Shown here one piece after another: positions 7,426 to 55,162 of a DNA stretch of 64,000 nucleotides; position 1 is the stretch's first letter, and each line of letters starts with the position of its first letter. The DNA comes from Candidatus Poribacteria bacterium. GTDB taxonomy: Bacteria; Poribacteria; WGA-4E; WGA-3G. Made by a program: the position numbers and the translations under genes. The stretch lies in NCBI GenBank assembly GCA_965214095.1, contig OZ243938.1:4928001-4992000 (forward strand). The letters are read 5' to 3'. The notes below the pieces were generated by a model. The model was not told the origin of the DNA, made no database searches, and was given only the letters and a program-made list of their open reading frames with translations.

Positions 7426-8262
7426 TTACCTCCGTCGTGCTTTAATTTGTCCCCAAGTTACACTCAAATGATTTGATGTCGGACTCACATCAAGTCCTTC
7501 TGCATTCATGTTATTTTTAACTTCAGCCGCAGTCAGTGCCCTGTCATAAACGCGAAATTCGTCAAGATATCCTTGGATAGCATCCTCATTAACACCATCT
7601 GACCTGTCACCAATACCTAACAAAAGACCACCGGCAGGGATTGTACCAGCAGCAACAGTATGATCTATCGCAAGTTTACCATCAACATAATAACTAACAT
7701 TTGAACCATCATAAGTGCCAACAATATGAATCCATTTTCCAACAGGTATATCTTCCTGAATGAGATGTTGACCTGCATTCGTTGCCTTACCACCGGCTTT
7801 GACAAAAAACCCGTGTCGATTGTCATCATCGTCGTAATATAGGGTGACAACTTTAGAATTTGTGGGTTGATCATCAAGTGAAATGATACGGTTCCAACTA
7901 TCATCTAAAGCGTTGATTTTGACCCAACATTCTAAAGAGATTTCATCCCAATCTCGGTCAATCTTCGGAGGATCAGAATCCTCAACAAGAAAATAGTCAT
8001 CAAATCCGTCAAGTAAAACGCATTCTCCGACCACACAATCTGCTGCAGAAGCAAGTTCAGGATCACCATCAACTATTGCCTTTAAACCTGAAAAAACATC
8101 CTCTGCCTGTTTATCGATTTGCACAGTATCACTATCAAATGACCAATATGCAACTAAACCGTCTTCAACCGCACCTTTTACCGCATAAACTGGTTGCATA
8201 ATCACTATTGAAAATACAAATAGTATCAAAATAGTGGTGTATATATGAATCTTAGCGAACAT
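7426..8262 (-). CDS. Secreted LamG-like jellyroll protein with C-terminal TWGQIK tail
   Basis: Signal peptide, GLVAYWSFD, WIHIVGTYDG, GYLDEFRVYDRALT. Confidence 0.85.
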   Translation of the reverse strand: MFAKIHIYTTILILFVFSIVIMQPVYAVKGAVEDGLVAYWSFDSDTVQIDKQAEDVFSGLKAIVDGDPELASAADCVVGECVLLDGFDDYFLVEDSDPPKIDRDWDEISLECWVKINALDDSWNRIISLDDQPTNSKVVTLYYDDDDNRHGFFVKAGGKATNAGQHLIQEDIPVGKWIHIVGTYDGSNVSYYVDGKLAIDHTVAAGTIPAGGLLLGIGDRSDGVNEDAIQGYLDEFRVYDRALTAAEVKNNMNAEGLDVSPTSNHLSVTWGQIKARRR

Positions 8263-8404
8263 GATGTCTCCCATTATGGTTAGGCTTGCTAAACACATTA
8301 ATGCATCCAACAAGCCAAATTAAGAATTGCAAACTCAGTTGTAAGATTTACAATCTTGATATTCAAACACAGTTCTCGTAAATACAATTCTGGTATTTCA
8401 CCAA

Positions 8405-9796
8405 CTAAAATACATCACGCATAGCGCGTCTACGGGCATCGGCACGATCACGCTCCGTTTCTGCGTCAGACTGACCATCAGGCTGGTCTGCAAAGATGGA
8501 TACATATTGCGATGCTTCACCTTTACGTTTGAAGATACGGAAATAATCAAAACGGGTCAGGGTCGGTGGAATATTACCAGGACAGAGTGCATGTAATCCT
8601 ACTTCTACTCTGGGACCCAATGCAATACGCGTAATTCCTACCCCTTTCCAATGGATTCCATCTTGACTTGCAAAAGAAGAGATCTGATTACCACGTCTCT
8701 CTAATCGTAAGAATAGTTCTCTTACGTTCTGCATTCCTCCACGTCCAACAAGGTGGAAACGTCTATTGGCGTGTCTTTCAAAACGAACATCTCCACGGAA
8801 AGCGTGTGGTCCAGAGGTCTTCTCTAATCGCACAAACTGGTTTTCATTCTTCCAGATAATTATACCACCGTGTTCCCGTAATTGTGGGGAGACTCGCAAC
8901 CGGGTTTCAATTGCAAAGTCTTCTGTCACTGCCATGAGTAGCCTTGGGGCAGTCATATCGCCACCACGTCCGTTCGGACCGTGCCATAGGTCTTGCCCTG
9001 GATCTGTCCGCATTTCAAGGTAACCTTGACGTTCAGCCCATCCACCACCACCTTGAGGGTCTTCCCATCGCCATTCTGGACGCATATCGTTACCGATGAA
9101 TTCGTCTTCAAACACTAATTCAGTGAATTCACCTGACGATGCCCAGCCTTCTATCTTTATAGCGGATATTGAATCTCCAAAACTTTGCGGCAACAGATGT
9201 AAGTTAGGCAATTCCTTTTTGAATTCGGAAGGTTCCATTCGAATGGATAACTTTGCCCCTTCAAAATCCGGATGTTCATAAAATACAACCTCAGCACCAT
9301 CGGGTGGGAAATCCGGTCCCTTAAATATACGAATTGACGAGATTCTATCTTCAAACCAAGTGCCACCTTGCGGTGTTCTCAGGTTGGCAATATCACGTAG
9401 GATTGTAATCTTTCTACCTTTATATTCTACGTGTTCATAGCAATCCACGATCATCGGTATTGTTCCCCATTCAGGTCCTACAACATCTATTGTTGAACCG
9501 AAATTGATAGAGGATACCCTATCTGCAAAGTTGAATGCTACATCATGTAAGTTGGGGTAAAAACCTGGTCCGAGCGCAAGTTTCTTACCTTTATAGTTGA
9601 CATGTTGGTATAATATTGCTTTGTAATTTGGACTTCCAGAAAAATTGGGTCCCTTATAAATCTTTAGCGAGGAGATATTGTCTTGAAATCCAATACGTCC
9701 TGTATGCGGCACAGGTTCTAAGACATATCCCATCCTTCCACGAAAATTGGTGTGTTGAAACACCTCTACTATCAGACGGGGAATTACAACTGGCAT
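8405..9796 (-). CDS. Beta/gamma-crystallin repeat protein fused to a ConA-like (DUF1349-type) domain
   Basis: Four (F/Y)xHxx(F/Y)xG...D-x-(I/V)-S-(S/A) Greek-key motifs, then APRLL...FASQDGIHW jellyroll region. Confidence 0.75.
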   Translation of the reverse strand: MPVVIPRLIVEVFQHTNFRGRMGYVLEPVPHTGRIGFQDNISSLKIYKGPNFSGSPNYKAILYQHVNYKGKKLALGPGFYPNLHDVAFNFADRVSSINFGSTIDVVGPEWGTIPMIVDCYEHVEYKGRKITILRDIANLRTPQGGTWFEDRISSIRIFKGPDFPPDGAEVVFYEHPDFEGAKLSIRMEPSEFKKELPNLHLLPQSFGDSISAIKIEGWASSGEFTELVFEDEFIGNDMRPEWRWEDPQGGGGWAERQGYLEMRTDPGQDLWHGPNGRGGDMTAPRLLMAVTEDFAIETRLRVSPQLREHGGIIIWKNENQFVRLEKTSGPHAFRGDVRFERHANRRFHLVGRGGMQNVRELFLRLERRGNQISSFASQDGIHWKGVGITRIALGPRVEVGLHALCPGNIPPTLTRFDYFRIFKRKGEASQYVSIFADQPDGQSDAETERDRADARRRAMRDVF

Positions 9797-10060
9797 TTCT
9801 TTCTCCTATTGGTTGGTATTCTCATTATCTAATTGACATTCATGAGTTCAAGTGATTTCCAAATGTGATCTGTAATATGACAGAACACTAAGACTGAAAT
9901 GAAGATATTAAGAAAATCTAAAAAATATGCCTATCTGGGCTTTCTACGATGTTTTAGTACTTACTTGTTTATCACTGATTGAAATAGGTTCTAATGGTAT
10001 TAGAACTATAACAATATTCAGGATTTACAAACTGTTTTTACAAAGATTTGTCTTCATATT

Positions 10061-11245
10061 TCAAGGTCCTAATAGATGTGACTCCGATAAATATTTGGGT
10101 TCGATTGGGTATTCACGAGGCAGATATATTTCAATAGGGATACCAATTTGATCAAGATACTTACACATCAATGGTGCAACATCTTTCCAGTTTAATCCAC
10201 CCAAAGCACAACCCAATGCAGGCATGGCAAGAGATTCAATGCCTTCTTTTCTTGCGTTCTCTTGTACCCATTTTAATCCGTTTTCAATATCCTCAATACG
10301 TGAGTTTGTTCGCCAATGACGTTTCGTTGCAAAAAGTAAAAACCATTTTATAGGATTCTTTATGGGCACACGATGCGGCTTGAGATCAGTCAACTCATCT
10401 GCAACTGATTCCTCACGTTTATAAAGATAAGGACGTTCAGCAGTAATTCTCTTAGTACGGCATACTTTCTCATATTCAACATATACATCTGGATATTGTT
10501 CTTTAGCACGTAAGGCTAATCCTTTACCCATAACACCTTGAAGATTGACTGTGATTGTCAGAGTCTGCAACTCAGAAAAAAAGATGTCACCACCATCAAT
10601 AAGTCTAATATTATTGCCTCTTGTAATGCAATGTTTAGGCTGGAAGTACCTATTGGAATGATAATTAACTGGTAAGTTAACACTATCAGACATTATCTGG
10701 TTCATTAGGTTCATATTATCATCGGCAAGTATCACTGAGCGGATGTATTCAGGCTTTACACGTTCAGGAACTAAACATTCTGCCATGATTTTTCGTTTTG
10801 ATCCATCGCTTTTTCTCCACCAATCATTCTGAAGCACTTTAGCATGTTGTTGGATTTTTTTCAGTCCTTGAGAACAAGGATAGAACTGTGTGAAGTCTTC
10901 AGTTACATTGCCATCAGAAATGATGACACCAGGTTCACTAAGGACTGTGTTGGCAACTTCAAGAATAACTAATTTTTCTAATCCTGTTTCAATAATAGAG
11001 CGGTACAAGATTGGATTACGTGGTTGAAAGAAGAGACCGGCATAATTCAATAAGTTATTGTTATTCATCAGAGGCGCAATCTTAGACCTTTTGTCAATAT
11101 CGTTATATGAATGTTTTTTACCTTTGAATATCGGTATAAATTTACATCCTACATCTTTAATTCTATTATAGGATAAAATACCTCGTTTAATTATAGATTG
11201 CAAGTTATCTATATGCGTAATGTAGAAGAGACTATTGAATTTCAT
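10061..11245 (-). CDS. DarT (DUF4433) ADP-ribosyltransferase domain fused to a DarG-type macrodomain
   Basis: N-half YITHIDNL, FQPRNPILY, SDGN, AECLVP; C-half GDIF, TVNLQGVMGKGLA, FATKRHWR, PALGCALGGLNW. Confidence 0.85.
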   Translation of the reverse strand: MKFNSLFYITHIDNLQSIIKRGILSYNRIKDVGCKFIPIFKGKKHSYNDIDKRSKIAPLMNNNNLLNYAGLFFQPRNPILYRSIIETGLEKLVILEVANTVLSEPGVIISDGNVTEDFTQFYPCSQGLKKIQQHAKVLQNDWWRKSDGSKRKIMAECLVPERVKPEYIRSVILADDNMNLMNQIMSDSVNLPVNYHSNRYFQPKHCITRGNNIRLIDGGDIFFSELQTLTITVNLQGVMGKGLALRAKEQYPDVYVEYEKVCRTKRITAERPYLYKREESVADELTDLKPHRVPIKNPIKWFLLFATKRHWRTNSRIEDIENGLKWVQENARKEGIESLAMPALGCALGGLNWKDVAPLMCKYLDQIGIPIEIYLPREYPIEPKYLSESHLLGP

Positions 11246-11306
11246 GGTTCTACCTTTTGATCAATGTTATGATTTGGTAAGAATTGACAACATAAATGAA
11301 TTATAA

Positions 11307-11942
11307 TTACTGTTTCTGGAATGAAGGTGTAAAGATGTCATTATCTTCTTCAGTTGCAACAACTCTCTTACTTAAATCCAACGGGGTTAATCGGACACTT
11401 AGTAAGTTTTCTACACTGTTGTCAGCAACTATGAATCTTTTAATATACTTGGGTTCAACATTACTAGGAACTAAGCATTCAGCCATCAATTGACGTCTAA
11501 ATTTTCTTGAGTGATCCCATGAAATCCATGAGGATGATTGAAGAATATCTCGTTGTGCATCAATTTTCTTCATTCCCTCTGACTGCGGATAAATCCTAGT
11601 ATGACTACTTGAGGCAATACCATCCGTAATGAATATCCCTTGTCTATCCTCCATTATAGATTTTGATATCCCTAATACTGATATATTTTGTTTGCCTATA
11701 GATTTAAGAATTCTGTATAACATCGGATTACGAGGTTGAAGAAATAGATTAGTATAGTGCCATAGATTTTTCTCATCAGAGGTGTATCTTTCCTTACGAT
11801 CGTTGACAAGGTCCAGGTCATAGATTGAAGTGTAATTAATATTCTCAGTTACAATTCTTTCGTGTGAAAGAATTCCATTGACGAAAATGGATGGTAAGTT
11901 GTCAATATGTGTAATGTAATACAAACCCTTTATGTTCAGCAT
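11307..11942 (-). CDS. darT: DarT-family ssDNA ADP-ribosyltransferase (DUF4433)
   Basis: YYITHIDNLPSI, GILSH, LQPRNPMLY, ITDG, MAECLVP (putative catalytic Glu). Confidence 0.83.
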   Translation of the reverse strand: MLNIKGLYYITHIDNLPSIFVNGILSHERIVTENINYTSIYDLDLVNDRKERYTSDEKNLWHYTNLFLQPRNPMLYRILKSIGKQNISVLGISKSIMEDRQGIFITDGIASSSHTRIYPQSEGMKKIDAQRDILQSSSWISWDHSRKFRRQLMAECLVPSNVEPKYIKRFIVADNSVENLLSVRLTPLDLSKRVVATEEDNDIFTPSFQKQ

Positions 11943-12152
11943 AGTCTTGCACAAGAATAATTCTGTTCACAAAAGTGAAAATAAACGGGTAAATTTCACC
12001 ACAATAAATTCAATTGACGAGTAATAAGCAAGCATTCTGAATATGCATTGATTAAATCCTATTTTCGAAAAAATTCTATTCCAGAATAAAGTCAAAGTTA
12101 TCGATATATAATGCTATGGAAGATCATGAGAATGTTTCATACATCTATATAA

Positions 12153-13241
12153 TCAAAGCAACACTTCATAAATCTGAGCGAACCCATATCTATCCGAAGT
12201 GAACACAACATGTTTCCCATCAGGACTGAAAGATGGATGCGGATGCGTGTGTTGCGGTGCATAAACTTGAATCGGTCCATCACTGTATGGAAAAGGTCCA
12301 TCCCAATGTTCACCTAACGATGATGCATTCGGATAACACAACGTTTTCGGTTCCCCGATTCCATCTCGCGGGTCAAATATTTGAATGCCTATGTCAGGGA
12401 AATTTGTATCAGCCACCATTAATGTGCCGTCAGTGTTACATATTGCATGCCATGCATTGAATGATGTAATTTGCCGTACTTTTTCGGTGTCAACATTGAC
12501 ACACCGGACACCGCGTTGCCAATCCACGAATGCTAACTCACGTGTACGAGGTATCCAAGTTTCGTGTGTTATCCATTCGTTTCTTTCAGCATTCCTTGCA
12601 TAGAGCCTACGATTTCCTGTGCCATCACGATGAATTACCCAAACCCTGTCAGTTAGCGGACCTGCGTAATAGAGTAAGTTTGAATCATCCGGACAAAATT
12701 GTAGGTGTGCAATACTATCCCTACGTAAAATAATGTCATGATCACCTGTCTCTGTATTGACAATAGCAAGTGCAGACTCTTCTCCCAGACTATAGCGAAC
12801 TGCCCACCATTTGTCATCGTGGCTAAGTGCGGTTGTTCCCATCGCTGCAGCAACCATACCACTATCACGCATTTCAGTCGCTGAGAAGTTAACCAACTCC
12901 CGTTCCTCCAACGTTTCCAAGTCAAGCCGCCATCCACTTGTTCCTGCTGTGAAAAACACGGCAGTACCATCGTGTGATGGATGAACTGACCACTCACTAA
13001 ATTCCGGTCTGTCAGTGAGCTGTCGGAGTTGACCTGAACTACGTTCTTCAGCAAAAATCTGCGGTGTTCCTGTCCTATACGACACAAATATTAACCGCTG
13101 CATCGCATCGTCGTACGCAGGAATGATAAAAAACGGATGATGGTGATGTGCTGAAGCAGTCGTTACCTGACGAATGTATGTTCCTGTACGTCTATCGTAA
13201 AATGACCTCGATTCAGCAGAATAAACAGTACCTTTTCCCAT
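12153..13241 (-). CDS. Oligogalacturonate lyase family beta-propeller protein
   Basis: HLQFCP, RVW, THETW, WHA, HPHPSFSPDGKHVVFTSD. Confidence 0.75.
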   Translation of the reverse strand: MGKGTVYSAESRSFYDRRTGTYIRQVTTASAHHHHPFFIIPAYDDAMQRLIFVSYRTGTPQIFAEERSSGQLRQLTDRPEFSEWSVHPSHDGTAVFFTAGTSGWRLDLETLEERELVNFSATEMRDSGMVAAAMGTTALSHDDKWWAVRYSLGEESALAIVNTETGDHDIILRRDSIAHLQFCPDDSNLLYYAGPLTDRVWVIHRDGTGNRRLYARNAERNEWITHETWIPRTRELAFVDWQRGVRCVNVDTEKVRQITSFNAWHAICNTDGTLMVADTNFPDIGIQIFDPRDGIGEPKTLCYPNASSLGEHWDGPFPYSDGPIQVYAPQHTHPHPSFSPDGKHVVFTSDRYGFAQIYEVLL

Positions 13242-13251
13242 CTATTTTTCA

Positions 13252-14250
13252 CTATTCTTCAAATGCAGAATCAAATGCAACCTCAGACGGTTCAAAATCA
13301 TACCCTTTGACTTTGCTACAAGCCTCACTGGCTCCGTGTTCTCTATCCATACCACTGTCTTCCCATTCAATTGAAAGTGGACCGTTATAGCCAATATTGT
13401 TGAGTGCTCGGATAATCTCTTCAAAATTGATATTACCGCGTCCAATTGAACGGAAATCCCAGAAACGTTTTGAATCGCCAAAATTCAAATGTCCACCGAA
13501 CACACCAGACAATCGTGGTGTCTCTGCCCACCAAACATCCTTCATGTGAACGTGATATATCCGATCAGCCAAACGTTCAATGAATGCAACATAATCAACG
13601 CCTTGGTACCCAAGGTGACTGGGGTCATAGTTAAAGCCAAATGTTTCTCTACCATCAAGTGCTTCAATCGCACGTTCAGCAGTAACGATGTCAAATGCAA
13701 TTTCAGTCGGATGAACTTCAAGACCGAACTTAACACCTACCTCATCAAACACATCAAATATAGGATTCCATTTGTCTGCGAAATCTTTAAATCCAGCATC
13801 AATTTGGGATGCGTCTACAGGTGGGAACGAATAGAGTAGATGCCAGATGGAACTGCCTGTAAATCCGTTGACGACATCAACACCAAGTTTTGCGGCGGCA
13901 CGTGCAGTGTTTTTCATCTCTTCGGCAGCCCGTTCTTGAACGCCAGCAGGATCTCCATCACCCCATATTGATTCTGATAGAATTGTTTGGTGTCGGTCGT
14001 CAATATTGTCACATACTGCTTGGCCAACGAGGTGATTACTAATCGACCAAACTTTCAATCCATATTTTGCAAGTAGGTCATGTCTTCCTTGACAATAACT
14101 ATCGTCAGAAAGTGCTTTATCCGTTTCAAAATGGTCTCCCCAACAAGCGAGTTCTAATCCATCATACCCCCACTCACTCGCTTTTTTGGCTATATCTTCA
14201 AGTGTTAGGTCTGCCCATTGTCCTGTAAATAGAGTAACAGGTCTTGCCAT
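13252..14250 (-). CDS. Sugar phosphate isomerase/epimerase (AP_endonuc_2 TIM barrel)
   Basis: [39 protein letters not shown]. Confidence 0.88.
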
Positions 14251-14310
14251 ATTTTTTCTCCTTTATTCATAATTTTGTCCAAGTCATCTGTCTCAATTGT
14301 TTCTATTCTT

Positions 14311-15483
14311 TTATGCTGGCGGTGTATAACTTGCATCCACCCAACCGCGTTGCTTTCCACTTTCAACGGCTGTATTTATGAAATGAACACCACGTGCACC
14401 ATCTTGTACAGTGGGAAAATCGGTGTCAAACTCATCAGGAGATTCACCAGCAATTTTCGCTGCCATTGTCCGTGATGCATTCACATAGATATTCGCGAAC
14501 GCTTCAATAAATGCCTCAGGATGTCCAAAGGGTATTCGTGAATTGTGTTGCGCAATCTCCGCAAGATAATCATTACCGCGTTTATAAACCTGTTCCGGTT
14601 CATCAGGGAAACGCACAGATAGATAATTCGGATTTTCTTGATGCCATTCAAGCGATGCATCAGTTCCATATACACGGATTCGTAGGTTATTCTCTTCTCC
14701 AACAGAGATTTGTGATGCATACAGAACGCCGCGCACTCCGTTCTCATAGTGAACTAAAAGATTCCCATCATCCTCTAACAAGCGTCCTTCAACAAAGGTG
14801 GTCATATCCGCACACACTTCTTCCATTTCAAGTCCTGTGATATAATGTGCGAGGTTTTCTGCGTGAGAACCGATGTCACCTATACACGAGGATGCCCCTG
14901 CCTGTTTCGGGTCTGTCCGCCAGACAGCTTGCTTCGCTCCCTCATCTTCCAAGAATGTTGCCAGCCATCCTTGAGGATATTCCACGACAATTTTTCGTAT
15001 AGTTCCCAGTTTACCATCCTTCACAAGTTCACGCGCTTGTTTCACCATCGGGTAACCGGTATAATTGTGTGTCAGGGCAAAAATTACATCATTTGATTTT
15101 ACAAGATGACATAATGCTTCTGCATCTTCCACCGTCGTTGTCATCGGTTTATCGCAAACTACGTGGAATCCAGCTTCAATAAAGGTTTTTGCTACATCAA
15201 AATGAACGTGATTCGGGGTGACGATTGATACAAAGTCAATTCGTTCACCTTCTGGAAGTTGACTCTCTTTTTCAGCCATCTCCTTATAAGAACCGTAAAC
15301 TCGGTTATCATCAAGAAAGAGTTCTGTTCCTTGTTGCTTTGATTTTTCCGGTGATGATGAAAACGCGCCTGCTACCAGATCAATTTCTCCATCAAGTGCA
15401 GCAGCTTTCCGATGCACCGCTCCAATGAATGCATCAGGTCCACCGCCTACCATTCCATAACGTATCTTCCTACCAAGTGGCAT
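14311..15483 (-). CDS. Gfo/Idh/MocA family oxidoreductase
   Basis: GMVGGGPDAFIGAVHR, IVTPNHVH, CDKP, GDIGSHA, GHPEAFIEAFAN. Confidence 0.92.
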   Translation of the reverse strand: MPLGRKIRYGMVGGGPDAFIGAVHRKAAALDGEIDLVAGAFSSSPEKSKQQGTELFLDDNRVYGSYKEMAEKESQLPEGERIDFVSIVTPNHVHFDVAKTFIEAGFHVVCDKPMTTTVEDAEALCHLVKSNDVIFALTHNYTGYPMVKQARELVKDGKLGTIRKIVVEYPQGWLATFLEDEGAKQAVWRTDPKQAGASSCIGDIGSHAENLAHYITGLEMEEVCADMTTFVEGRLLEDDGNLLVHYENGVRGVLYASQISVGEENNLRIRVYGTDASLEWHQENPNYLSVRFPDEPEQVYKRGNDYLAEIAQHNSRIPFGHPEAFIEAFANIYVNASRTMAAKIAGESPDEFDTDFPTVQDGARGVHFINTAVESGKQRGWVDASYTPPA

Positions 15484-15723
15484 ATTATATATCCATTCCT
15501 TATTCGTTGTGTAAAAGTTCAACACATGAGATTTTTTCTAATTGTATACTATCATTGTGCCATATTTTTTCATTAATTTCAAGGTGTTTTTGCAAAGAAC
15601 AGGGTTATTTAGTTGAAGGTTTTCTTCTATTTTCTTTCACAAATGCAAAGTGCCCTAAGACGGTAGATGCAGTTTCCTAACCTCACCATCTATCTTTTGA
15701 ATAGCACCTTGAAACATCAAACT

Positions 15724-15790
15724 CTAATCCTGAAAATCTACTAATCCTGAAAATCCTGGTTCAGACAAGAATCCGCGCTTCAGACACAAG
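15724..15790. repeat. Short tandem CTAATCCTGAAAATC repeats
   Basis: Two direct copies followed by TTCAGACA twice; a degenerate GTAG hairpin lies at 15663. Confidence 0.5.
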
Positions 15791-15795
15791 AAATG

Positions 15796-16707
15796 CTACT
15801 CAATACTATTACTCACATATAACTGTCCATCTCTATTCACAACAGTAAGATGTAGTTCATTCGTCTCACGACTCCGTGAAAACGACAATTTCCAGATAAA
15901 ACCATCAGGCGCATCAATCCGAGACATGAGTCCCCTTTTGCCAACGTTCCATAAGCGGATTATTGGATCCCTGCCACCACTTGCAAGAATCTTACCATCA
16001 TCGGAGAAGGCTAATGCATTTACAGAATCTGAATGTGCACCGAAGGTTGAAAGAAGGTGTTCACTCTCAAGTTCCCACAACCGAACGGCAGAATCTGAAC
16101 CACCACTCGCAAGTAGACTATCATCAGGCGAAAACATGACTGATAAGACTAAGCCATCGTGTGCAGATATAGAGGATAATTGCCTGCCTGATTCCAATTC
16201 CCATATACGTATCTTACCATCTGAACCACCACTGACAACAGTTTTGCTATCAGATGAGAAAGTTAATGTTCTAATATTAGACGGATCTGCAGTAGAACTA
16301 CTCAACATGCGGACTGCTTCTTCATTCCAAGCAGTCAGTGGAACCCCATCTGGAGAAGATGCCAATGCTTTCACTAAACTCGATGTTTCACCCGCAAGAG
16401 TCGCAATTTCATTAGAGGTGTTTGTATCCCACAGACGTAAAGTGCTATCCTCACTTGCACTGACAAGTGTCCGATTATCTGGGGCAAAAGCAACCGCACG
16501 GATACGGTCTGTGTGTCCTGACAAAACTGCTGACTGTTCACTGTCTTCTAAATTATAAACCCATATCCGTTCGCTACCACCAGCAGCAAGATAGCAGCCA
16601 TCTGGTGAAAACGATAGATCTGTGATCTCTTTATTGCTCAATCTTTCTCGTAAACTCTGTGGTAGTTCTATCTGGTTATTTATGTTGAACACAGCAGTCT
16701 TCTCCAA
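15796..16707 (-). CDS. WD40 repeat protein
   Basis: Repeated GH/AH...FSPD...SGG.D..R.W(D/E) units. Confidence 0.88.
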   Translation of the reverse strand: MEKTAVFNINNQIELPQSLRERLSNKEITDLSFSPDGCYLAAGGSERIWVYNLEDSEQSAVLSGHTDRIRAVAFAPDNRTLVSASEDSTLRLWDTNTSNEIATLAGETSSLVKALASSPDGVPLTAWNEEAVRMLSSSTADPSNIRTLTFSSDSKTVVSGGSDGKIRIWELESGRQLSSISAHDGLVLSVMFSPDDSLLASGGSDSAVRLWELESEHLLSTFGAHSDSVNALAFSDDGKILASGGRDPIIRLWNVGKRGLMSRIDAPDGFIWKLSFSRSRETNELHLTVVNRDGQLYVSNSIE

Positions 16708-17008
16708 TTGATTATCTTAATTTGGACAAAATAATGAACCCTATGTAAGTTTATCAGAAATAAGTTCAGATTTCAATTCTAATTCTATGACAAGATGTGA
16801 AAAGTTTCTTTCTTCATTAAAACAATGAACCCACATTTTGGCATTAAATTGAGCTAAAATCACAAATGAGATTTGACTTGAAAATACACCTATGAATCAA
16901 ACATAATTCTATCAGTATAAGAGAAATATGATACAACACATCCAAATGTAAATATATTTGAATTTGGCAAAATAATATGTTAAAATTCAAAATCAACAGG
17001 AGGGAAAT

Positions 17009-27672: not shown

Positions 27673-28389
27673 TTAATAGTTAGTAACTCTTTGTTTAATA
27701 TTCCCCCATGTAGTTGCGGCTTTATTTTTCGCTGAGACAGCAAGAAGATCGCCGCCCATTGCTTGGTTGATTTCATCCTCGCTGAGTGCACGACTCCATA
27801 TTGCTGCATCGTCAATCATACCGTTTACAAAGGTATATTGTGGCCGGTCTTTTGAACATCCGATCCGTAGGTCTTGGTCGTTGGTACCTGTGAAGTTGAA
27901 CTCTTTCGCTTCTTCAACGGAGAGTTCTCCATCAACATAGATCTTCATTGTGTCCCCATCATAAGTTCCAGCGACAAAATGCCACATTTTTACTTCAAGG
28001 TTATGTGGTTTGTTCAACGTTTGACGGTTCTGGTCTGAACCTAAGAACATATTGAAAGTATTACCATCACCAAAAACACCTATACCGTAGGACGTATGTT
28101 CGCCTCCGTTATGGCAGTTTTTATCGAACCACTGAGCATCTTTGTTCCAGACTTCCATCCAGACCCATGCAGCCATAGTGATTTCACCGCTGATTTTTAA
28201 CTTGTCGTCAGCTGGTACATTCACACAATCCGAACCTTCAGCAGTAATTTTGATTGCCTTGCCATTTTTGCCATCAACATCATCAAAAGTTAAGAAGATA
28301 ACAAGATCGTCTTCAATGGCTGCGAAAACTGATCCGACAGCTATTAACGTTATTATCGCTATGAGCGAGAATACTGTTGACCGTAACAT
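27673..28389 (-). CDS. Secreted LamG-like jellyroll protein with C-terminal TWGNIK tail
   Basis: Signal peptide, ITMAAWV, WHFVAGTYDG, GMIDDAAIWSRALS. Confidence 0.85.
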   Translation of the reverse strand: MLRSTVFSLIAIITLIAVGSVFAAIEDDLVIFLTFDDVDGKNGKAIKITAEGSDCVNVPADDKLKISGEITMAAWVWMEVWNKDAQWFDKNCHNGGEHTSYGIGVFGDGNTFNMFLGSDQNRQTLNKPHNLEVKMWHFVAGTYDGDTMKIYVDGELSVEEAKEFNFTGTNDQDLRIGCSKDRPQYTFVNGMIDDAAIWSRALSEDEINQAMGGDLLAVSAKNKAATTWGNIKQRVTNY

Positions 28390-45403: not shown

Positions 45404-45406
45404 AAT

Positions 45407-46516: not shown

Positions 46517-46548
46517 TACTAATTATACTTTCAAAAAGGAATACAAAT

Positions 46549-47151
46549 ATGGCAGCAGAACAGACAAATGGATGGATATCTCTCTTTGATGGTGAAACAC
46601 TAAACGGTTGGGGTGCCACTGGTAAAGAAGAAGGATGGGCTGTGGATGACGGTGCTATTCTCTGCACTGTTAAAGGCGGTAATATGCTCTATTCAGAAGA
46701 GCAATTTGACAACTTCGTCTTGTCATTGGAATATATGAGTGAACCGACTGTGAATAGTGGTATTTTTATACGTTGGGCAGATTTGCAACGTCCAGTGCAA
46801 ACAGGACTTGAGATTCAGATTTTAGACACACACGGCAAAGAACCTGCTACGAAACACTGCTGTGGTTCACTTTATGATGCTTTGGAACCGACACGGAACG
46901 TATGCAAACCTGCAGGTGAATGGAATGAAATGATTATCACTTGTGATGGAAGCCTCGTCATTGTTGAAATGAACGGTGAAGAAATTGTCCGTGCAGATTT
47001 AGATGAGTGGGATACACCGCATGAGAATCCTGATGGTAGCAGGAACAAATTCGGTATCGCTCTCAAAGATTTTCCGCGTAAAGGACATATCGGTCTTCAA
47101 GATCATGGTGGAAAACTCTGGTTTCGAAATATAAAGGTTAAACTGTTGTAG
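46549..47151 (+). CDS. DUF1080 (3-keto-disaccharide hydrolase family) protein
   Basis: LFDGETLNGW, NSGIF, EIQILD, GSLYD, GHIGLQDHG, FRNIK. Confidence 0.9.
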   Translation: MAAEQTNGWISLFDGETLNGWGATGKEEGWAVDDGAILCTVKGGNMLYSEEQFDNFVLSLEYMSEPTVNSGIFIRWADLQRPVQTGLEIQILDTHGKEPATKHCCGSLYDALEPTRNVCKPAGEWNEMIITCDGSLVIVEMNGEEIVRADLDEWDTPHENPDGSRNKFGIALKDFPRKGHIGLQDHGGKLWFRNIKVKLL

Positions 47152-47191
47152 ATGGAAGGTTGAGGTGCGTTTTCTCGTGCCTCTATCGTGT

Positions 47192-47332
47192 TATAGTGAA
47201 TTATAAATATAAGTTGTCACTTTCGACCCACGGTCGGCAAGGTTTCCTAACCTCGCCGATTCGTCCCACGGTAGGCGAGGTTTCCTAACCTCGCCGATGC
47301 AGAGTGTTCAACTAATTTCAAAATCCACTATA
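47192..47332 (+). mobile_element. TATAGTG...CACTATA MITE carrying a duplicated GTAG-REP
   Basis: Near-identical to 61356-61458, with one extra REP arm. Confidence 0.75.
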
Positions 47333-47396
47333 ATAACGAGATTAAGGCATCATTTTTATGGAAAATTGACATGAAATGTAGTATACTATTTATATC

Positions 47397-49202
47397 ATGT
47401 CAACATTACTTCACAACATTCGCAATTTCTGTATTTTAGGACACATAGACCACGGCAAAAGCACATTAAGTGATCGTCTCTTAGAGCAAACAAATACGCT
47501 TGCTGAAAGAGAGATGCGGGAACAAGTGCTGGATTTAATGGATTTGGAACGGGAACGCGGTATCACTATAAAAGCTACCGCAGTCAAACTCCATTATCGT
47601 GCTGAGGATGAAAATGTCTATGAACTCAATTTGATTGATACGCCAGGACATGTAGATTTTACTTATGAGGTGTCCCGAAGTCTTGCGGCGTGTGAAGGTG
47701 CTATCCTTATTGTTGATGCAGCACAAGGCGTTGAAGCACAAACGTTGGCAAACGCCTATCTTGCTGTAGAAAATGAACTGGAAATTATCCCTGTAATTAA
47801 CAAAATTGACCTCCCCGCTGCCCAACCTGATGAAGTCAGAAGACAGATTGAGGAGGTCGTTGGTATACCGGCGGAGGATGCCCTCCTTGTCAGTGCGAAA
47901 GCCGGCACCGGCATCCCCGCTATTTTAGAGGCAGTTGTCAAGCGAATACCCGCACCTATTGGGAACTCTGCAGCCCCATTAAAAGCACTTGTGCTGGATT
48001 CCATTTACAATAACTATCGTGGTGTGATTATTTACACTCGCATCTTTGATGGTAGCATTGCACCGGGTGATAAGATTCAACTCATGCAGACTAAACAGTC
48101 TTATGAAGTTGAGGAAGTTGGCATTTTTACGCCACAAATGCAACCCGCTTCCGAACTCAATACAGGTGCAGTCGGATATCTTATTGCGGGTATTCGTGAC
48201 ATTGACAATGCTAAAATTGGCGATACTATAACGCATCATCTGCATCCTACCGAAGTACCACTTCCAGGCTATCAAGAAATAAAACCGCTTGTATTTAGTG
48301 GTCTGTATCCTGCAGATACAAACCAATTTCAGGCACTCAGAGAAGCACTGGAAAAGTTACGGCTCAACGATTCCTCTTTCACCTTTGAACCAGAAACCTC
48401 TGTTGCGCTTGGATTCGGGTTTCGATGCGGATTCTTAGGTCTACTCCACATGGAAATCATCCATGAACGGCTTGAACGAGAATTTGAACTCTCGCTTGTT
48501 CGTACTGCCCCCAGTGTGATGTATCGGGTTTTTCTCAAATCTGGTGATGATGTGTTAGTGGACAATCCCGCACATCTGCCAGAAACACAGGACATTGAAC
48601 GAATTGAAGAACCGTATGTCAGTATTGATATAATCGTTCCACGGGAATATATCGGAAATGCAATGGAACTTTGTCAAAAACGACGGGGTATATATAAGCG
48701 GATGAACCAATTGGATGTGAGCAGAGTACAACTCCTCTATGATTTGCCACTCAGTGAAATGCTTGTTGATTTTTTCCCGAAGTTAAAATCACTCACTCGC
48801 GGATATGCTTCACTTGAATACGATATCGGTGAATATAGAACAGAGAAACTGGTAAAGTTAGATGTTCTTTTAATGGGAAAACCTGTTGATGCGCTCTCAA
48901 CTATTTTACCACGTGAAATGGCTGAAAACCGTGGAAAGAATTTAGTATCTAAACTGAAAGAGTTGATACCCAGACAAATGTTTGAAATACCGATCCAAGC
49001 TGCGATCGGGACTAAGATTGTAGCACGCGAGTCGGTCAGACCGCTTCGTAAAAATGTAACCGCAAAATGCTACGGTGGTGATATTACAAGAAAACGAAAA
49101 TTGTTAGAAAGACAAAAGGAAGGTAAAAAACGCCTCAAACAGATCGGGAATGTTGATGTGCCACAAGAAGCATTCACAGCAATGCTTGCTACAGATGATT
49201 AA
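47397..49202 (+). CDS. lepA: Elongation factor 4
   Basis: [51 protein letters not shown]. Confidence 0.98.
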
Positions 49203-49250
49203 CATACACATATCAGATATACGGACAAATCCATTTTTCACGAGGACAAC

Positions 49251-50651
49251 ATGAAGTATATCAATATATTATGCCTAATATCGCTCCTTCTATTCAGTTC
49301 ATTTACTTTCGCAGCTACAATCAATGTGCCAGCCGATCAACCGACAATTCAAGCAGGGATTGATATATCTCAAAATGGTGACACTGTTTTGGTAGATGAT
49401 GGCATCTACAAAGGCAAAGGAAATGTTAACATTGATTTCAAAGGAAGAATGATAACCGTAAAGTCTCGCAATGGTGCTGATGCAACGATAATTGATTGTG
49501 AGAAAATTCTTGAGACCAGAGGTTTTACCTTCCATAATGATGAAACGATTGATTCGGTGTTAGATGGCTTTACAATTAAAAATGGGGTCCATATATTTGG
49601 TGGTGGTATCTATCTTAGTTATGCTTCCCCAACAATTAAAAACTGTGTAATTGATAGCAACGAAGCGCGTAGGAACGGAAGTTGGACTGGTCTTGGTGGA
49701 GGCATATATATTTTTAATGCAGATCCGATTATAACCGACTGCACAATTATCCGAAATGAAGCAAGAAATACTTCTGGTGGCGGAATATGCATACATGGTG
49801 AATGGTTTAGGGATGGGGTTGTTTTGAGAGAAACTGATGCAACACCCACAATAGAAAATTGCTCTATTACTGATAATACCGGTAGTGGGATTTATGCTAT
49901 GTTGAGTGTTAACCCTATTATAAGTAATTGTACGGTATCGAAAAATAGCGGACAAGGTATTTTTTTTAATATCGAGGCACGCACCAGGAATCCTATCACA
50001 AATTGCCGAATAGAGCAAAACCGTGGTGGTGGTTTAGAAGTACGTGAATATTCTGTTATGGAAATTCAAAATTCTATCATAGTGGGAAATACAGCAGAAT
50101 ATGGTGGAGGGATTTTTTGTAGTCTAACTTCAGTATTAGCGGTCACGGACTGTGTAATTGCACGAAACACAGCAACCAAGAATGGCGGTGGTATTGAGGT
50201 GACATCGAAATGGGGCGGAACAGTGGTCAAGTATTGCACAATTACACAAAACACTGCCCACGAAAAAGGTGGTGGGATATATGCTAAGATGTTTCTTAGT
50301 GGTTTTGACCTAACCAATTCAATTGTTTGGGGGAATAAGTCTGAAGGGACACACGCGGAGGTATTCGCTGCAGGTAGGCAGGTAGTTATTAGGTTTAGTG
50401 ATATTAGGGATGGACTTGATGGTATAGATTACGAACCTGATGGTGAGAAGTTTACTGATGGTGAGGATTTTATCTATGAAAACAACATAGATGAGGATCC
50501 GATGTTCGTTGATGCAGACTCAGGTGATTATCGTCTTAAGCCTGGTAGTCCGGCTGAAGCGATGGGAGTACAAACGTTTCATGTCGGTCCAACTGCTGTC
50601 TCACAACATGGAAAACGTTTGGTAAGATGGGCAGATTTAAAACGAAGATAA
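49251..50651 (+). CDS. Secreted right-handed parallel beta-helix protein
   Basis: Signal peptide, VPADQPTIQAGID, repeated I..N.A..GGGI units, DP.FV; tail WADLKRR. Confidence 0.85.
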   Translation: MKYINILCLISLLLFSSFTFAATINVPADQPTIQAGIDISQNGDTVLVDDGIYKGKGNVNIDFKGRMITVKSRNGADATIIDCEKILETRGFTFHNDETIDSVLDGFTIKNGVHIFGGGIYLSYASPTIKNCVIDSNEARRNGSWTGLGGGIYIFNADPIITDCTIIRNEARNTSGGGICIHGEWFRDGVVLRETDATPTIENCSITDNTGSGIYAMLSVNPIISNCTVSKNSGQGIFFNIEARTRNPITNCRIEQNRGGGLEVREYSVMEIQNSIIVGNTAEYGGGIFCSLTSVLAVTDCVIARNTATKNGGGIEVTSKWGGTVVKYCTITQNTAHEKGGGIYAKMFLSGFDLTNSIVWGNKSEGTHAEVFAAGRQVVIRFSDIRDGLDGIDYEPDGEKFTDGEDFIYENNIDEDPMFVDADSGDYRLKPGSPAEAMGVQTFHVGPTAVSQHGKRLVRWADLKRR

Positions 50652-50808
50652 CATTCGGAACTTTTGTTGAATAAATAGCCGTATTATCTCAACAAATCTT
50701 ATGGTGGAACTCAGGTTATTGGAACGGTGTTTATTAGGTTAGACACAGTCCACTTCAGAATTTTAGTAACAATAGCAATAGAATATACTCAACCATAGGA
50801 GAAAAAAC

Positions 50809-52251
50809 ATGTTACAAATTAGAATGTTCGTCTATTCAATAATTATTGTATGTTTCTCTTTTTTATGTCCACTTACTTTTGCAGCTACGATTAATGTGCC
50901 TGCAGACCAACCGACAATTCAAGCAGGGATTGATACCGCACAAAACGGTGATACTGTTTTGGTAGATGATGGCACCTACAAAGGCGAAGGAAATGTTAAT
51001 ATTGATTTCAAGGGTAAAGAAATAACTCTTAAATCTCGCAAAGGTGCTGAGTCAACGGTTATTGACTGTGAAGAGAAACTTGAAACCAGAGGATTTTATT
51101 TCCACAATGGAGAGACAAACAAAGCGGTGTTGGATGGATTTACTATTATTAATGGATTGCATCAATTTGGTGGAACAATCACTCTTATTTCTGCTTCACC
51201 TACGATTAAAAATTGTGTAGTTAAGGATAATCTGAGACCTGGCATATATTGCCTTAATTCCGCTCTAAACGTTACAGACACCATTATCTCACGTAATATT
51301 GGGTCAGGTATACTCATTGGAGGAATTGATTTCCTTTTAACGCTTATTCGGGATGATGTTATACAGGATGATGTTAGTTTGGTTGAAACCTTGATAGTAC
51401 CGACTATCAAGAATTGTACTATTTCTGACAATACGGGTAACGGGATTTACTGCGTGCTTGAAAGCGCAATTATCGATAATTGTACTGTTTCGAATAACGG
51501 TAGACGAGGTATAAATCTCGATTCTTTCGCTGGAGCGGATATAACAAATTGTCATATCACTGAAAATTCTGGCGGTGGTTTAATATGTCAAGACTATTCC
51601 GGCATAACAATTAAAAATTCGATTATAGATAAGAATACAGCGGAAAATGGTGGTGGTATATTCTGTAGTCCAACTTCAAGGTTAAATGCCACGGATTGTG
51701 TAATTGCAAACAATACTGCTCTGAAGAATGGCGGAGGTATATGGGATCTTACAAGATTCGGCGATGCTTATGTCAAGTATTGTACAATTACACAAAACTC
51801 AGCAGGAAATAGGGGTGGCGGTATTTGCGTTGAAGACCGAGGTCATCTTAACTTGACAAATTCAATCGTATGGGATAATACTTCTGATGGGACACACACT
51901 GAAGTATTTGCCCAGGGATCCGTAACCATTAAGTCATGCAATATTAAAAATGGTCTTATGGGAGTTGATCCCGATGGCAGACAGAAATTTTTAAAATATG
52001 TGGACAACATAGATGAAGACCCGCTGTTTGTTAATGCAGACGCTGGTGATTTTACACTCCAACCAAATAGTCCTGCTGAAGGAATGGGAAAACGTGATGA
52101 AGCTGACCAAGAAGAAGATGTGCAGGAAGAAGTTGAACAGGAGGTAGTGGAGCAGGAAAAAAATGAGCAGGAACAAGAGAAAGAAGATCCACTATCTGTA
52201 TCTCATCATGGAAAACGATTGGTAAAATGGGCAGATTTGAAACGAAGATAG
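50809..52251 (+). CDS. Secreted right-handed parallel beta-helix protein (paralog)
   Basis: Same architecture, with an acidic linker before WADLKRR. Confidence 0.85.
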   Translation: MLQIRMFVYSIIIVCFSFLCPLTFAATINVPADQPTIQAGIDTAQNGDTVLVDDGTYKGEGNVNIDFKGKEITLKSRKGAESTVIDCEEKLETRGFYFHNGETNKAVLDGFTIINGLHQFGGTITLISASPTIKNCVVKDNLRPGIYCLNSALNVTDTIISRNIGSGILIGGIDFLLTLIRDDVIQDDVSLVETLIVPTIKNCTISDNTGNGIYCVLESAIIDNCTVSNNGRRGINLDSFAGADITNCHITENSGGGLICQDYSGITIKNSIIDKNTAENGGGIFCSPTSRLNATDCVIANNTALKNGGGIWDLTRFGDAYVKYCTITQNSAGNRGGGICVEDRGHLNLTNSIVWDNTSDGTHTEVFAQGSVTIKSCNIKNGLMGVDPDGRQKFLKYVDNIDEDPLFVNADAGDFTLQPNSPAEGMGKRDEADQEEDVQEEVEQEVVEQEKNEQEQEKEDPLSVSHHGKRLVKWADLKRR

Positions 52252-53262
52252 GAGTCAATAAAGTCTTTAACGAAAAAAGTGTTTATACTTTTTCGGTAGG
52301 AACGATCTCCGAATTGTAACGAAACACTATGAAATTCGGAAATCCAAATCAACGGTATGAATCATGGAATATGCTAAACGCGCATGCTTCTTTAGGCATT
52401 CCCGATGTACCCTCCTACAAATCAAATGTAAAGTGAGTTGCAAAATCTACTATCATTAGAAAACATGAAAAGATTTAGAATATTATTAACTATATTACTA
52501 ATATTCGTAGCATTCTCTGCTAACGCTAATTATTTGGTTAAAACAATTTATATTAAACCGAATAATGTGCAGAATGTCCCGTTTGATAAAATTAGAGGAT
52601 GGATGGATGATGTTCAGCAATTATATATTGAAGAAATGTCTAAATACGGTTATGGAGATAAAACCTTTAAATACGAAAGAGAACATAACGGAAATATAAA
52701 AGTAAATGTAATAAATACTAACCGTCCATCTCATATATACCAATCTAATACTTGGGAAAATATAGAACCAGAAATACCAGAAAGATTTAAAGATCAAAAA
52801 AATGTACATGTTTTTATTGTAGGTGGTATTGACACAATCAATTTAAATCGTGGATGTTGTCAATGGGGTGTTGGATGGCCTATATATAATTTCAATTTTG
52901 GTGGTTCATGTATAGTTGCAGAAAATGCAAATACCTCTATGGTTAGATTAATTACACATGAAGTAGGACATACATTTAGTTTGTATCATACTGGAACAGC
53001 GAATACAATAATGGGATCAGGAGAAGAACTATTAGAGTATGAAGCAAGATGGTTAGATAAACATTATTTTTTCAATCCTGATAGAATAATAAAATGGCAA
53101 CATCCAAAGGTTAATCAAGTATTTAATGTTGAAGAAATAAAAGATAATATAATTAGCATCAAGATTAATATTACAAGTCCAAACGATTTATATCAAATTG
53201 TCGTTATGGATAATGATATATTGGTACTAGGTTGGCAATATATTGATGGTAAAAATACTAAT

Positions 53263-54304
53263 AGACATTATAATGATTTAGTTGCAAGTTTAGTTAACCT
53301 CTGTTATTCTAATTACAATCTTATAAATGGAGGTTTTCTCATTATCGTTTTTGAAGATATTAAGGACAAAGCTGATACGCTTCTATCTCTCACTGGATAT
53401 ACTTTAGAAGAGTTTACAAAACTATTACCTCATTTTTCTAAATGTTTTTTAGCTTATATGGAAACACATACCCTTGATGGAAAACCGCGCATAAAACGGA
53501 GATATAAACCCTACAAGAATAGTTGTTTTGCTTCACATGAAGATATGTTGCTATTTATATTAATTTATCTTCATGAAGCTCCGAAACAGGTTCTATTCGG
53601 CACGCTCTTTGGTATGGCTCAACCTCTTGCGAATAAATGGATTCACTTGCTTTTACCGATATTGAACACCGCATTAGCAGAACTTGAAGAGCTGCCATCT
53701 CGGGAAACAGTTCCCACATCTATGTGTGATACTTGTGAGGTATCAAGTCAAAGTCAAGATAAAGCGTATTTTTTTTCATGATGGTATAGAACGGCGAATA
53801 CGGCGTCCAAGAGACCCAGAAGCTCAAAAGGCATATTATAGCGGTAAAAAGAAATGTCATACAGCAAAAAATAATCTGATTATCAATGAGAGCTGCAAAG
53901 TCGTCCTATTGACACCCTCTTTTGAAGGAAGACACCATGACAAATACATAGCTGATCAGGTGGGCTATTGTGTGCCCCCGGGAAGCACCTTGTATCAAGA
54001 TACCGGTTTTCAGGGGTTCACTCTTCCTGATGTTCACATCGTTCAACCGAAGAAAAAACCGAAAGGTGGAGAACTGACAGAAAAAGAAAAAGAAATCAAT
54101 AGAAAGATAGCGTCTATACGCATACGTGTTGAACATGCCATTAGTGGTGTCAAAAGATACCGCATTGTCAAAGACAAACTCAGAAATTGGAAGAAAGGGT
54201 TTTGTGACTTAGTTATGGAAACCTGTTGTGGTTTACACAATTTTCGACTAAACTTCAGACCCTGGTGTTATGAAACTCCTACTATTTAATTCATTATAAT
54301 GTCT
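53263..54304 (+). mobile_element. IS5-family (ISL2-like, DDE_Tnp_4) insertion sequence, 1042 bp
   Basis: 14-bp perfect TIR AGACATTATAATGA / TCATTATAATGTCT; 3-bp target duplication AAT (53260-53262, 54305-54307). Confidence 0.9.
53341..54289 (+). CDS. Transposase in two frames (HTH part, then DDE part) joined at a T8 run
   Basis: LTGYTLEEF; HDGIERRIRRP, YSGKKKCHT, QDTGFQG, RIRVEHAI; +1 shift at 53769-53776. Confidence 0.8.
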
Positions 54305-55162
54305 AATGTAGATATGAGAATAAGTAGAAGTAAACTAATAGGAAAAAACAATCTAACCTTTATGATCATGGATACTTTAGGTGCTTTTACCTTTCATAGA
54401 TACGATTTCGTTATGCCTCCAAGATTTATAGAAGAGAATGTAGATTTAGGACTTGAGGAAGACCTTGAACCAATAACTATTAAAGAGGATACATCAGAAA
54501 ATGTTGTATATCTTAACATTAATTCAGGTAAAAAGACTTTACCTGATCAAAAAGGATTAAAACCGTTTAATTCTACAGCTGAATACAAAAATGGATGGGG
54601 ATGGCGAGCTATTTCAGATAATAAAACTAATAATGGTAACTCTATTATTATTAGAAATACTACTTTTGAAAGAGGTATTTCGCTATCTCCACCTGACAAT
54701 CCAAAAGTCTCATCTCTTAAATATAATTTAGAAGGAAATAATTACATTGCTTTTGAAGGATATATTGGAATAACTAATGATAGAGATTTTGAGATTGATG
54801 AAAATCAGAATGAAAGTTGTTTTGTAGGTGGTAGTTGTATATTTACATTTGAAATTGATAAAAAAAATATGTATAAATCGGGATTATTAACTGGTAAAGA
54901 CAATTATGAAAAAATCAGTTTTTATATACCCTTTGATGCAAAAGTATTGAGAATTGTTATTGATAGTGGAGTAGATACATCTTTGTGTGATCATCCGGCA
55001 ATAGGAGATCCAAAATTAATATCTAACTCACAAATTAGATATAGAATACAACCTAAAGGAAAACTTACTACTTTATGGGGTGAAATAAAAGGAATTTAGG
55101 AGAATAACTTTGATTATGATTGTTGGCAGTAAAACACTAAGTTGATGTCTATTGAGAATAAT

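Follow-up and report, generated by a model that had tools for sequence, protein, structure and literature searches.

Why should exported proteins of unrelated types end in one and the same short peptide? The question is raised by a stretch of 64,000 nucleotides from a Candidatus Poribacteria bacterium (genome G000, C1:4928001-4992000; hereafter the window, meaning the whole stretch analysed), in which an earlier note had described five secreted proteins with a common C-terminal tail and had proposed a lineage-specific signal for export, anchoring or processing. The tail is a real C-terminal peptide, uncatalogued in the libraries and literature searched and under strong selection on about 160 exported proteins of this genome. 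Quite possibly it is a short sorting signal of a type IX secretion system (T9SS)-like machinery of Poribacteria, free of the C-terminal domain (CTD) usual in such systems, that is read and cut by an extra sortase of the PorU family.

All five tails quoted in the note were recovered at its positions, with scores of 16.5-28.1 bits against a profile built from the tails of this genome. Among the 49 non-overlapping open reading frames (ORFs) of at least 100 amino acids (aa) in the window the profile matches these five and no other. The genes and their tails are, in window coordinates:

7426..8313, minus strand: signal peptide and LamG (PF13385) protein with tail, 295-aa ORF (domain scan)
7426..7491, minus strand: tail and stop codon of the 295-aa LamG ORF (profile 16.5 bits)
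27673..28389, minus strand: signal peptide and LamG protein with tail, 238 aa (domain scan)
27673..27741, minus strand: tail and stop codon of the 238-aa LamG protein (profile 28.1 bits)
49251..50651, plus strand: signal peptide and right-handed beta-helix protein with tail (domain scan, model, 120 relatives)
50595..50651, plus strand: tail of the 49251 beta-helix protein (predicted coil, six-residue helix from the Trp)
50809..52251, plus strand: beta-helix paralogue with acidic linker and tail (domain scan)
52195..52251, plus strand: tail and stop codon of the beta-helix paralogue (profile 20.3 bits)
52438..53261, plus strand: fifth tail gene, 5' part, signal peptide and metallopeptidase-like domain (domain and genome comparison)
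53262..54305, no strand assigned: insertion sequence inside the fifth tail gene, 1044 bp, DDE transposase, weak IS5-family match
54306..55099, plus strand: fifth tail gene, 3' part, NPCBM domain and tail (domain scan, orthologues)
55043..55099, plus strand: tail and stop codon of the split fifth gene (profile 24.9 bits)

The domain scan upheld the two LamG and the two beta-helix assignments of the note. Its fifth protein, a signal-peptide metallopeptidase ending at 55099, holds for the reconstructed gene (52438-55099; signal peptide, metallopeptidase-like domain, NPCBM domain and tail in 538 codons) but not for the ORF with that end (54299-55099), which consists of the NPCBM domain and has no signal peptide of its own. 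The gene is interrupted by the insertion sequence, and its orthologues in two genomes of the same genus (G018 and G039) are unbroken, with open frames of 539 and 562 aa. The 1044-bp element has terminal inverted repeats and occurs elsewhere in the genome in four full copies (99.7-100% identity) and one partial copy; the copy at C1:4369201 likewise interrupts a tail-bearing LamG gene.

A conserved C-terminal peptide on exported proteins

When the ORFs of at least 100 aa in the whole genome were searched, the pattern W[GAS]x[ILMV]K was found within the last 16 residues of 157 out of 3880, against 0.97 expected from its internal rate, and at the end of none of 1994 shadow ORFs; the abundance of the tail at C-termini is not a matter of chance. 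At a cut-off of 6 bits the tail profile gave 160 C-terminal matches genome-wide, one of them (C1:508797) probably false, which fall into 33 BLAST sequence groups, the largest with 57 and 45 members, the 45 having been joined by chaining. The consensus of 158 seeds, L-[ASPD]-V-[ESD]-[PA]-x-[GD]-K-[LV]-[TA]-[TV]-T-W-[GA]-x-[LI]-K, describes a tail of about 18 residues in which V, K, W and K are nearly fixed. The W lies 4-15 residues from the end, close to the terminus as first described, but in four proteins the motif is also internal, directly before a T9SS type A CTD. The passengers among the proteins scanned are LamG, beta-helix, NPCBM, F5/8, CBM9, PD40 and TolB-like propeller domains, many others being without a family, and the tail proteins are small, with a median of 269 aa against 900 aa for CTD cargo.

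Co-occurrence with signal peptides, a check that the earlier note had proposed, was examined with a loose heuristic caller that is positive for 29% of other proteins. A signal peptide was called in 141 of the 158 tail proteins of at least 100 aa, in 63 of 83 CTD proteins and in 1065 of 3639 others, showing that the tail is rare on proteins without a signal peptide and not equally common on cytoplasmic ones. Seventeen tail proteins were without the call; 12 of these were checked in addition to that of the window, and 7 have an upstream piece with a signal-peptide-like start. The reported lack of a transmembrane helix was borne out, a transmembrane segment past residue 80 being found in only 2/158.

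The tail was detected in all 41 Poribacteria genomes searched, with 18 to at least 150 matches each. A search of 1.84 billion representatives gave 531 matches at E 0.001, and in the best 150 of these the motif lies at most 16 residues from the end in 144 and internally in 5, with one repeat artefact. The tail matches no model in Pfam or NCBIfam and is in that respect not assigned to any characterised sorting system, and the ESM Atlas returned just three unnamed clusters of 38-43 aa (0.82-0.85). Full-text literature searching, with subscription papers and supplements outside its scope, gave no title or abstract opening that names the tail; "Poribacteria" together with "C-terminal motif" matched nothing in the full-text literature, and the words "TWG", "Poribacteria" and "Eisenbacteria" are all absent from the accessible text of Haft (bioRxiv 10.1101/2023.06.07.544157).

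To place the tail relative to the fold, an AlphaFold2 model of the beta-helix protein encoded at 49251 was made from an alignment of 120 rows. The mean predicted local distance difference test score (pLDDT) is 89, with most of residues 443-457 below 50, and the Trp of the tail is the first residue of a helix of six. Among 120 relatives, picked by whole-protein similarity with the motif ignored and all Candidatus Poribacteria where they bear a name, V450, K455, W460 and K464 are kept in 97, 97, 100 and 100%, and the preceding linker in 23-57%. The modelled disorder and the retention of V, K, W and K after a variable linker mark the tail as a linear motif that is conserved but does not belong to the fold; its occurrence in 33 sequence groups and its position outside the fold in AlphaFold2 models agree with this.

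The proposal of a sorting, anchoring or processing signal is supported by sequence evidence, and the tail probably functions as such. It shows the attributes of sorting signals in being C-terminal, multi-copy and basic at its end, with near-invariant residues, on unrelated passengers that carry a signal peptide. Measured against the attribute list for C-terminal sorting signals in the accessible text of Haft, which includes a transmembrane helix, it has all but that helix.

The tail and the type IX secretion system

The genome holds 77 matches to TIGR04183 and, by a local model, 83 CTD proteins. It further encodes an SprA-like protein of 2196 aa (145 bits, under the cut-off of 200), 15 matches to the PorV family of which 7 are above the cut-off, a best PorU (NF033707) match of 422 bits against a cut-off of 420 and three C25 peptidases with CTDs, while GldM was matched in 0 of 10 genomes in a search where no positive control matched either. 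Kamke et al. 2014 (PMC3909097), as far as the accessible text goes, described TIGR04183 domains in Poribacteria, did not detect Por structural genes and did not settle how secretion proceeds; the SprA-, PorV- and PorU-like genes now found go beyond that.

The five tail proteins of the window match neither TIGR04183 nor PF18962, and a free tail and a CTD never occur in the same protein (160 against 83, overlap 0). The note's contrast with the T9SS CTD stands in that the tail is far shorter and matches neither model, but it misses a link, since the same genome has T9SS-like machinery and the four proteins with the tail peptide fused ahead of a type A CTD. Among the 30 best loci from five other Poribacteria genomes 14 more such fusions were found, in four of the five genomes. 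The W is retained in 4 of the 18 fusions; the set of free tails was seeded on W, and the fair benchmark is the 100% of the beta-helix relatives. Such a loss is expected if the CTD takes over the job of the tail. In a modelled CTD fusion, from an alignment that mixed fused and unfused rows, the peptide is disordered (pLDDT below 50 for residues 1-26) and unpacked, and on this prediction the tail as part of the CTD fold was rejected. An origin by fresh truncation of a CTD was likewise rejected, since CTD remnants follow just 2 of 160 tails, compared with 5 of 3185 other genes.

The opening of the tail also recalls the T9SS. A V or I stands about ten residues before the W in 157 of 159 tails, and (G/S/A)(V/L/I) opens 84 of the 159. 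According to the accessible text of Gorasia 2015 (PMC4560394) the P1'-P2' pattern of PorU is X/(GSA)(VLI), which the tail opening may be said to resemble; the resemblance is not proof.

Compared with the type A CTD (TIGR04183, PF18962/PF13860), which is carried by PorV and cut by PorU (NF033707), the tail is alike in being C-terminal, in many copies and on unrelated passengers with a Sec signal peptide, in an opening small-residue-Val pair that may resemble the PorU site, and in its fusions and the presence of SprA-, PorV- and PorU-like genes in the same genomes. It is unlike it in having about 18 residues, an invariant Trp and small cargo and in being absent from T9SS-bearing Zixibacteria; the CTD is a seven-stranded beta-sandwich with motifs B, D and E, whereas the tail is a predicted coil with a short helix and none of these. 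The short CTDs of Prevotella intermedia (Ye et al. 2025, PMC11969387), described in the accessible text as 40-55 aa with a three-stranded sheet and motifs B, D and E, of which the tail keeps none, show that a T9SS signal can become shorter and remain subject to cleavage and glycosylation. An argument from spacing based on "motif B" of Prevotella was dropped, as this motif, with its conserved Tyr and Gly, is distinct from the NYPNP stretch. Type B CTDs of 150-235 aa with dedicated PorP/SprF shuttles (Paillat et al. 2025, PMC12618676, accessible text) provide an earlier example of a second T9SS signal class that has a handling protein to itself, though no shuttle clade was found for the tail. 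LPXTG, PEP-CTERM, GlyGly-CTERM and MYXO-CTERM, as covered in the accessible text of Haft, share with it a short motif, a basic end and a many-to-one relation with a putative enzyme; the tail differs from such tripartite signals in that it has no transmembrane helix, no exosortase was found in Poribacteria and the candidate enzyme is a C25 peptidase. The Trp-tail is a member neither of the type A CTD family nor of the tripartite families.

Under the favoured explanation the passenger would fold after Sec export with the tail remaining unstructured, and the helix W-G/A-x-L/I-K would be gripped by a protein reader. A PorU paralogue, here probably the stand-alone paralogue b (C1:2779829), would then cut just before the small-residue-Val pair at the tail opening, and the C-terminus so formed would either be linked to a glycolipid of the surface or be released. 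Both binding and cleavage by a PorU paralogue are put forward as candidate activities.

Paralogue b was found in 41 of 41 Poribacteria genomes, and 40 of the 41 have at least two PorU-like genes. Another paralogue, c, adjoins a PorV-family gene, and b stands alone. The genome of the window has three PorU paralogues, at C1:2779829, C1:2636073 and C1:3092996. Both retain the His, the Cys and the PorU Arg in 12 of 12 rows; in b the C25 His-Cys dyad is followed by the Arg about 32 residues after the Cys in 6 of 6 rows, and the match to NF033707 is 353 bits, under the cut-off of 420. In the accessible text of Gorasia 2015 this Arg is noted in PorU and not in gingipains. More than one PorU is present in each tail-bearing group and one in the tail-less group, the extra copies not being orthologues, and this pattern, together with the usual PorU-PorV position of c, suggests b as the reader of the tail.

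A sister tail and a second PorU-family clade

GTDB contigs were scanned with the pattern W-G-x-[ILV]-K-x-L-Y-R-stop, which gave at least 127 loci, 80 of them with flanks. Where flanks are present, most matches form the end of an ORF of some 200-300 aa that begins like a signal peptide. Most of the named genomes belong to Eisenbacteria, Krumholzibacteriota and Latescibacterota; Fibrobacteraceae, Gemmatimonadota and others, whose labels may be loose, account for a few; 13 of 15 such genomes have 13-72 copies, and G053 and G046 have one each. This sister tail has the core T-W-G-x-[ILV]-K in common with the Poribacteria tail, so that "lineage-specific" was too narrow a term, and the two align over a 13-column core (hhalign 93%, E 2.6e-7). 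It opens with V-P-x-E-x-[ST]-T-W, and W-G-x-I-K-x-L-Y-R shows helical spacing. One carrier is a choice-of-anchor W domain (179 bits), of whose best relatives 114 of 120 end in the sister tail. A looser form of the (G/S/A)(V/L/I) opening is enriched before ordinary CTDs in both groups (14 of 27 against 4.0 at random; 21 of 68 against 10.2). The only recurrent neighbours at 77 sister-tail loci are CTD cargo, kinases, ABC ATPases and further passengers. At L188:9936-12562 (G041) two beta-helix proteins have a sister tail with Phe replacing Trp, near a PorV-family gene.

Zixibacteria, which carry SprA-like (G046), PorV and canonical PorU genes, served as a T9SS-positive, tail-negative control set. 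The sister tail was absent from 25 further genomes of the phylum of G046 (labelled Zixiibacteriota), and the Poribacteria form from 4 Zixibacteria genomes in a search without a positive control.

In a PorU search 9 of 12 sister-tail genomes yielded two matches, the second weaker than the first, and 8 of 8 Zixibacteria a single one. The second genes, named U2, encode a C25 domain and a FlgD-type CTD in about 1350-1530 aa, most with a C25 propeptide, have an intact His-Cys dyad (14/14) and form a distinct PorU-like clade (tree support 100/100). With a U2 profile, all 14 of the 14 sister-tail genomes, including six that were not among the 8 rows of the seed, matched over the full length (E 4e-128 or better). 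None of 26 Zixibacteria did so (best 1e-59); being a single phylum, they amount to about one event and to that extent weaken the control. Of the 12 genomes with DNA upstream of U2, 9 have a tail gene immediately upstream of it (missing in G043, G050 and G053, of which the last two show less than 1 kb; G051 and G052 are at a contig edge); around canonical PorU, flanks of 1.5 kb contain one in 0 of 12. Thirty more genomes from the phylum of G043, drawn regardless of tails, comprised 22 with many tails and U2, one with many tails and no U2, four with few tails and U2 and three with few tails and no U2 (Fisher p 0.03, the relatives not being independent); in two of the four with few tails and U2 a variant tail lies about 4 kb upstream of U2. 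A predicted complex of U2 (950 residues, alignment of 8 rows) and the sister tail (32 residues) scored 0.01 with controls that did not fold, and counts neither for nor against the reader.

A wider reading can be considered, in which several uncultured phyla have a second T9SS pathway where an 18-residue peptide with neither a folded domain nor a transmembrane helix alone secretes and anchors and a dedicated PorU reads it, the pairing having arisen twice, in Poribacteria and in Eisenbacteria/Krumholzibacteriota/Latescibacterota; we regard this as possible but doubtful.

Several observations weigh against a PorU-family reader of the tail. Those on Poribacteria concern first the enzyme: no U2 orthologue was found there (best match 9e-75, partial), and the PorU link for the tail of the window therefore holds by analogy only. 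A tree without rows T51_2b and Po04_c joins b with c (99), and an approximately unbiased (AU) test on the same rows rejects a clade of b and U2 (p 0.006). The nearest tail gene lies more than 14 kb from b in this genome, tail genes are merely mildly enriched near CTD genes (18 against 9 within two genes), and P and D are frequent at the presumed P1' (27 and 22 of 158). The tail furthermore has no CTD beta-sheet and none of the motifs B, D and E, which according to the accessible text of Ye 2025 bind PorV, and the favoured explanation does not account for a crossing of the outer membrane without these motifs. A dedicated PorV was sought and rejected, for in a FastTree of 146 PorV-family rows (4 Poribacteria, 5 sister-tail and 4 Zixibacteria genomes, some weak matches left out) there is no supported clade common to both tail groups yet missing from Zixibacteria, and the latter are equally rich in PorV-family matches (12-15).

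In the sister phyla the adjacency of U2 and tail is largely common synteny, the adjoining genes being related to each other. G081 holds 26 tails and no U2 match, and at 16 further U2 loci from the phylum of G043 a tail is upstream in 7, four of which were chosen for nearby tail matches, and not in 9. The PorU Arg is missing in U2 (0/14), though also in the canonical PorU of those phyla (0/12). The two tails overlap in 13 columns only and neither profile finds the other in genomes, so that they may be convergent.

About 4% of the predicted proteins in a dominant sponge symbiont bear the tail; most of these are small, lectin-like or built of repeats, and of a kind thought to face the host. Were it a true T9SS signal, it would be far shorter than the published ones compared, without the presumed PorV-binding motifs, and would change the definition of such signals; it would also allow envelope proteins to be recognised in several uncultured phyla and supply protein ligation with a candidate pair of peptide tag and enzyme. 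With a named enzyme and a predicted cut site the proposal can be tested in vitro without culturing the organism. Beyond the tail itself, the analysis contributes a tail-negative control, counts of U2 and of PorU paralogues, phylogenetic trees and the exclusion of several alternatives.

Other features of these T9SS-like systems were observed. Many Poribacteria CTDs, for example at C1:979507-989061, follow a helical hairpin with the conserved pattern W-L-x-x-A ... G-I-x-x-L-E-x-L-L, which is thus another module that recurs ahead of CTDs. In Zixibacteria (L246-L248, L253) the PorV-family gene adjoining PorU is in a frame of 900-1070 aa with a long insert after model position 40. In G041 and G042 (L189, L197; also L192, L199) a TonB-dependent receptor, a PorV-family barrel, a GWxTD protein and ExbB/ExbD/TonB-like genes stand in one run, that of L189 also including a CTD-like protein; the region C1:2227532-2240326 of G000 is listed alongside. 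The names ExbB and ExbD are tentative and come from BLAST matches, and these T9SS-like systems might be powered by an ExbBD-TonB motor. A protein of some 1100-1250 aa that belongs to no family and ends like an outer-membrane barrel adjoins an NHL-like protein (G000 C1:3285898-3290810; L187, L196, L222-L245), and its gene is close downstream of PorU-PorV in G041 and G042. This single-copy barrel near PorU-PorV was discarded as a tail-specific candidate since, among the 37 of 38 genomes that have it, it is present in 17 of 18 tail-negative ones; it is possibly a second translocon or a core part of the T9SS outside Bacteroidota.

Competing explanations and further features of the window

Among the alternatives to a cleaved T9SS signal, the one that survives best, which we nevertheless consider rather unlikely, is an uncut, non-covalent docking peptide held in a pocket of a carrier or scaffold (a CTD protein, an outer-membrane barrel or a periplasmic receptor), by which small modules would piggyback through the T9SS or be displayed on the surface. 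A disordered peptide in which W and K are fixed has the character of a linear docking motif, the decay of W upon CTD fusion and the small cargo agree with docking, and at L404-L410 the tail proteins of about 200 aa upstream of U2 look cohesin-like by eye and their partners end dockerin-like. Pfam did not confirm cohesin on the genes of L404-L410 and gave dockerin at E 0.29 only, the fused peptide is unpacked on its own CTD in the model from mixed rows, and docking leaves the cleavage-like Val and the link with a second PorU unexplained.

It is unlikely that the tail is a sorting signal for a reader outside the T9SS (a peptidase, a chaperone or another secretion system), the T9SS links then reflecting common cargo and neighbourhoods. 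Zixibacteria, with T9SS-like machinery yet no tails, speak for such a reader, and no orthologous reader common to Poribacteria and the sister phyla was found among the PorV and PorU families. Opposed to it are the CTD fusions in 5 of 6 Poribacteria genomes, the U2 profile and linkage, and the exclusion of exosortase.

Little probability is given to a basic amphipathic anchor that would bind membrane or lipopolysaccharide directly, with no protein reader, and retain binding proteins of acidic charge, be it in the periplasm, at the surface or in vesicles. The mean net charge of the tail, +2.3, is set against acidic passengers, a short terminal helix is predicted and the sister tail has its helical spacing. 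However, the helix has six residues only, the hydrophobic moment of W-5..W+4 peaks at 160 degrees and not at 100, and near-invariant V, K, W and K at fixed spacing probably exceed what lipid binding usually needs.

That the tail is a functionless linker left after CTD loss, as the same peptide ahead of CTDs in the fusions might suggest, is very improbable and largely refuted by the retention of V, K, W and K in the beta-helix relatives; the scarcity of CTD remnants behind tails, the better retention of W in free than in fused tails and the presence of the tail in 41 of 41 genomes also contradict it. The sister-tail start V-P-x-E-x-[ST]-T-W resembles PEP-CTERM motifs and the choice-of-anchor W passenger would suit them, but a PEP-CTERM derivative processed by exosortase is the least credible reading of all, given the near absence of transmembrane helices and the distribution of exosortase PF09721 (0/8 Poribacteria, 8/14 other tail-positive and 15/16 tail-negative genomes), which refutes it for Poribacteria at that sensitivity.

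Elsewhere in the window, two signal peptidase I paralogues (55142-55849 and 58645-59424) lie just downstream of the three-gene tail cluster. At 55876-58404 a 732-aa Big_5 protein stops at F-Y-R-G-W-W and a 100-aa ORF continues in the same frame, which suggests a peroxiredoxin-like domain split at a possible selenocysteine codon; the gene at 59424-61370 is presumably SelB-like. Two tandem ORFs at 10061-11954 begin Y-x-I-T-H-I-D-N-L and may resemble DarT-type ADP-ribosyltransferases of toxin-antitoxin systems.

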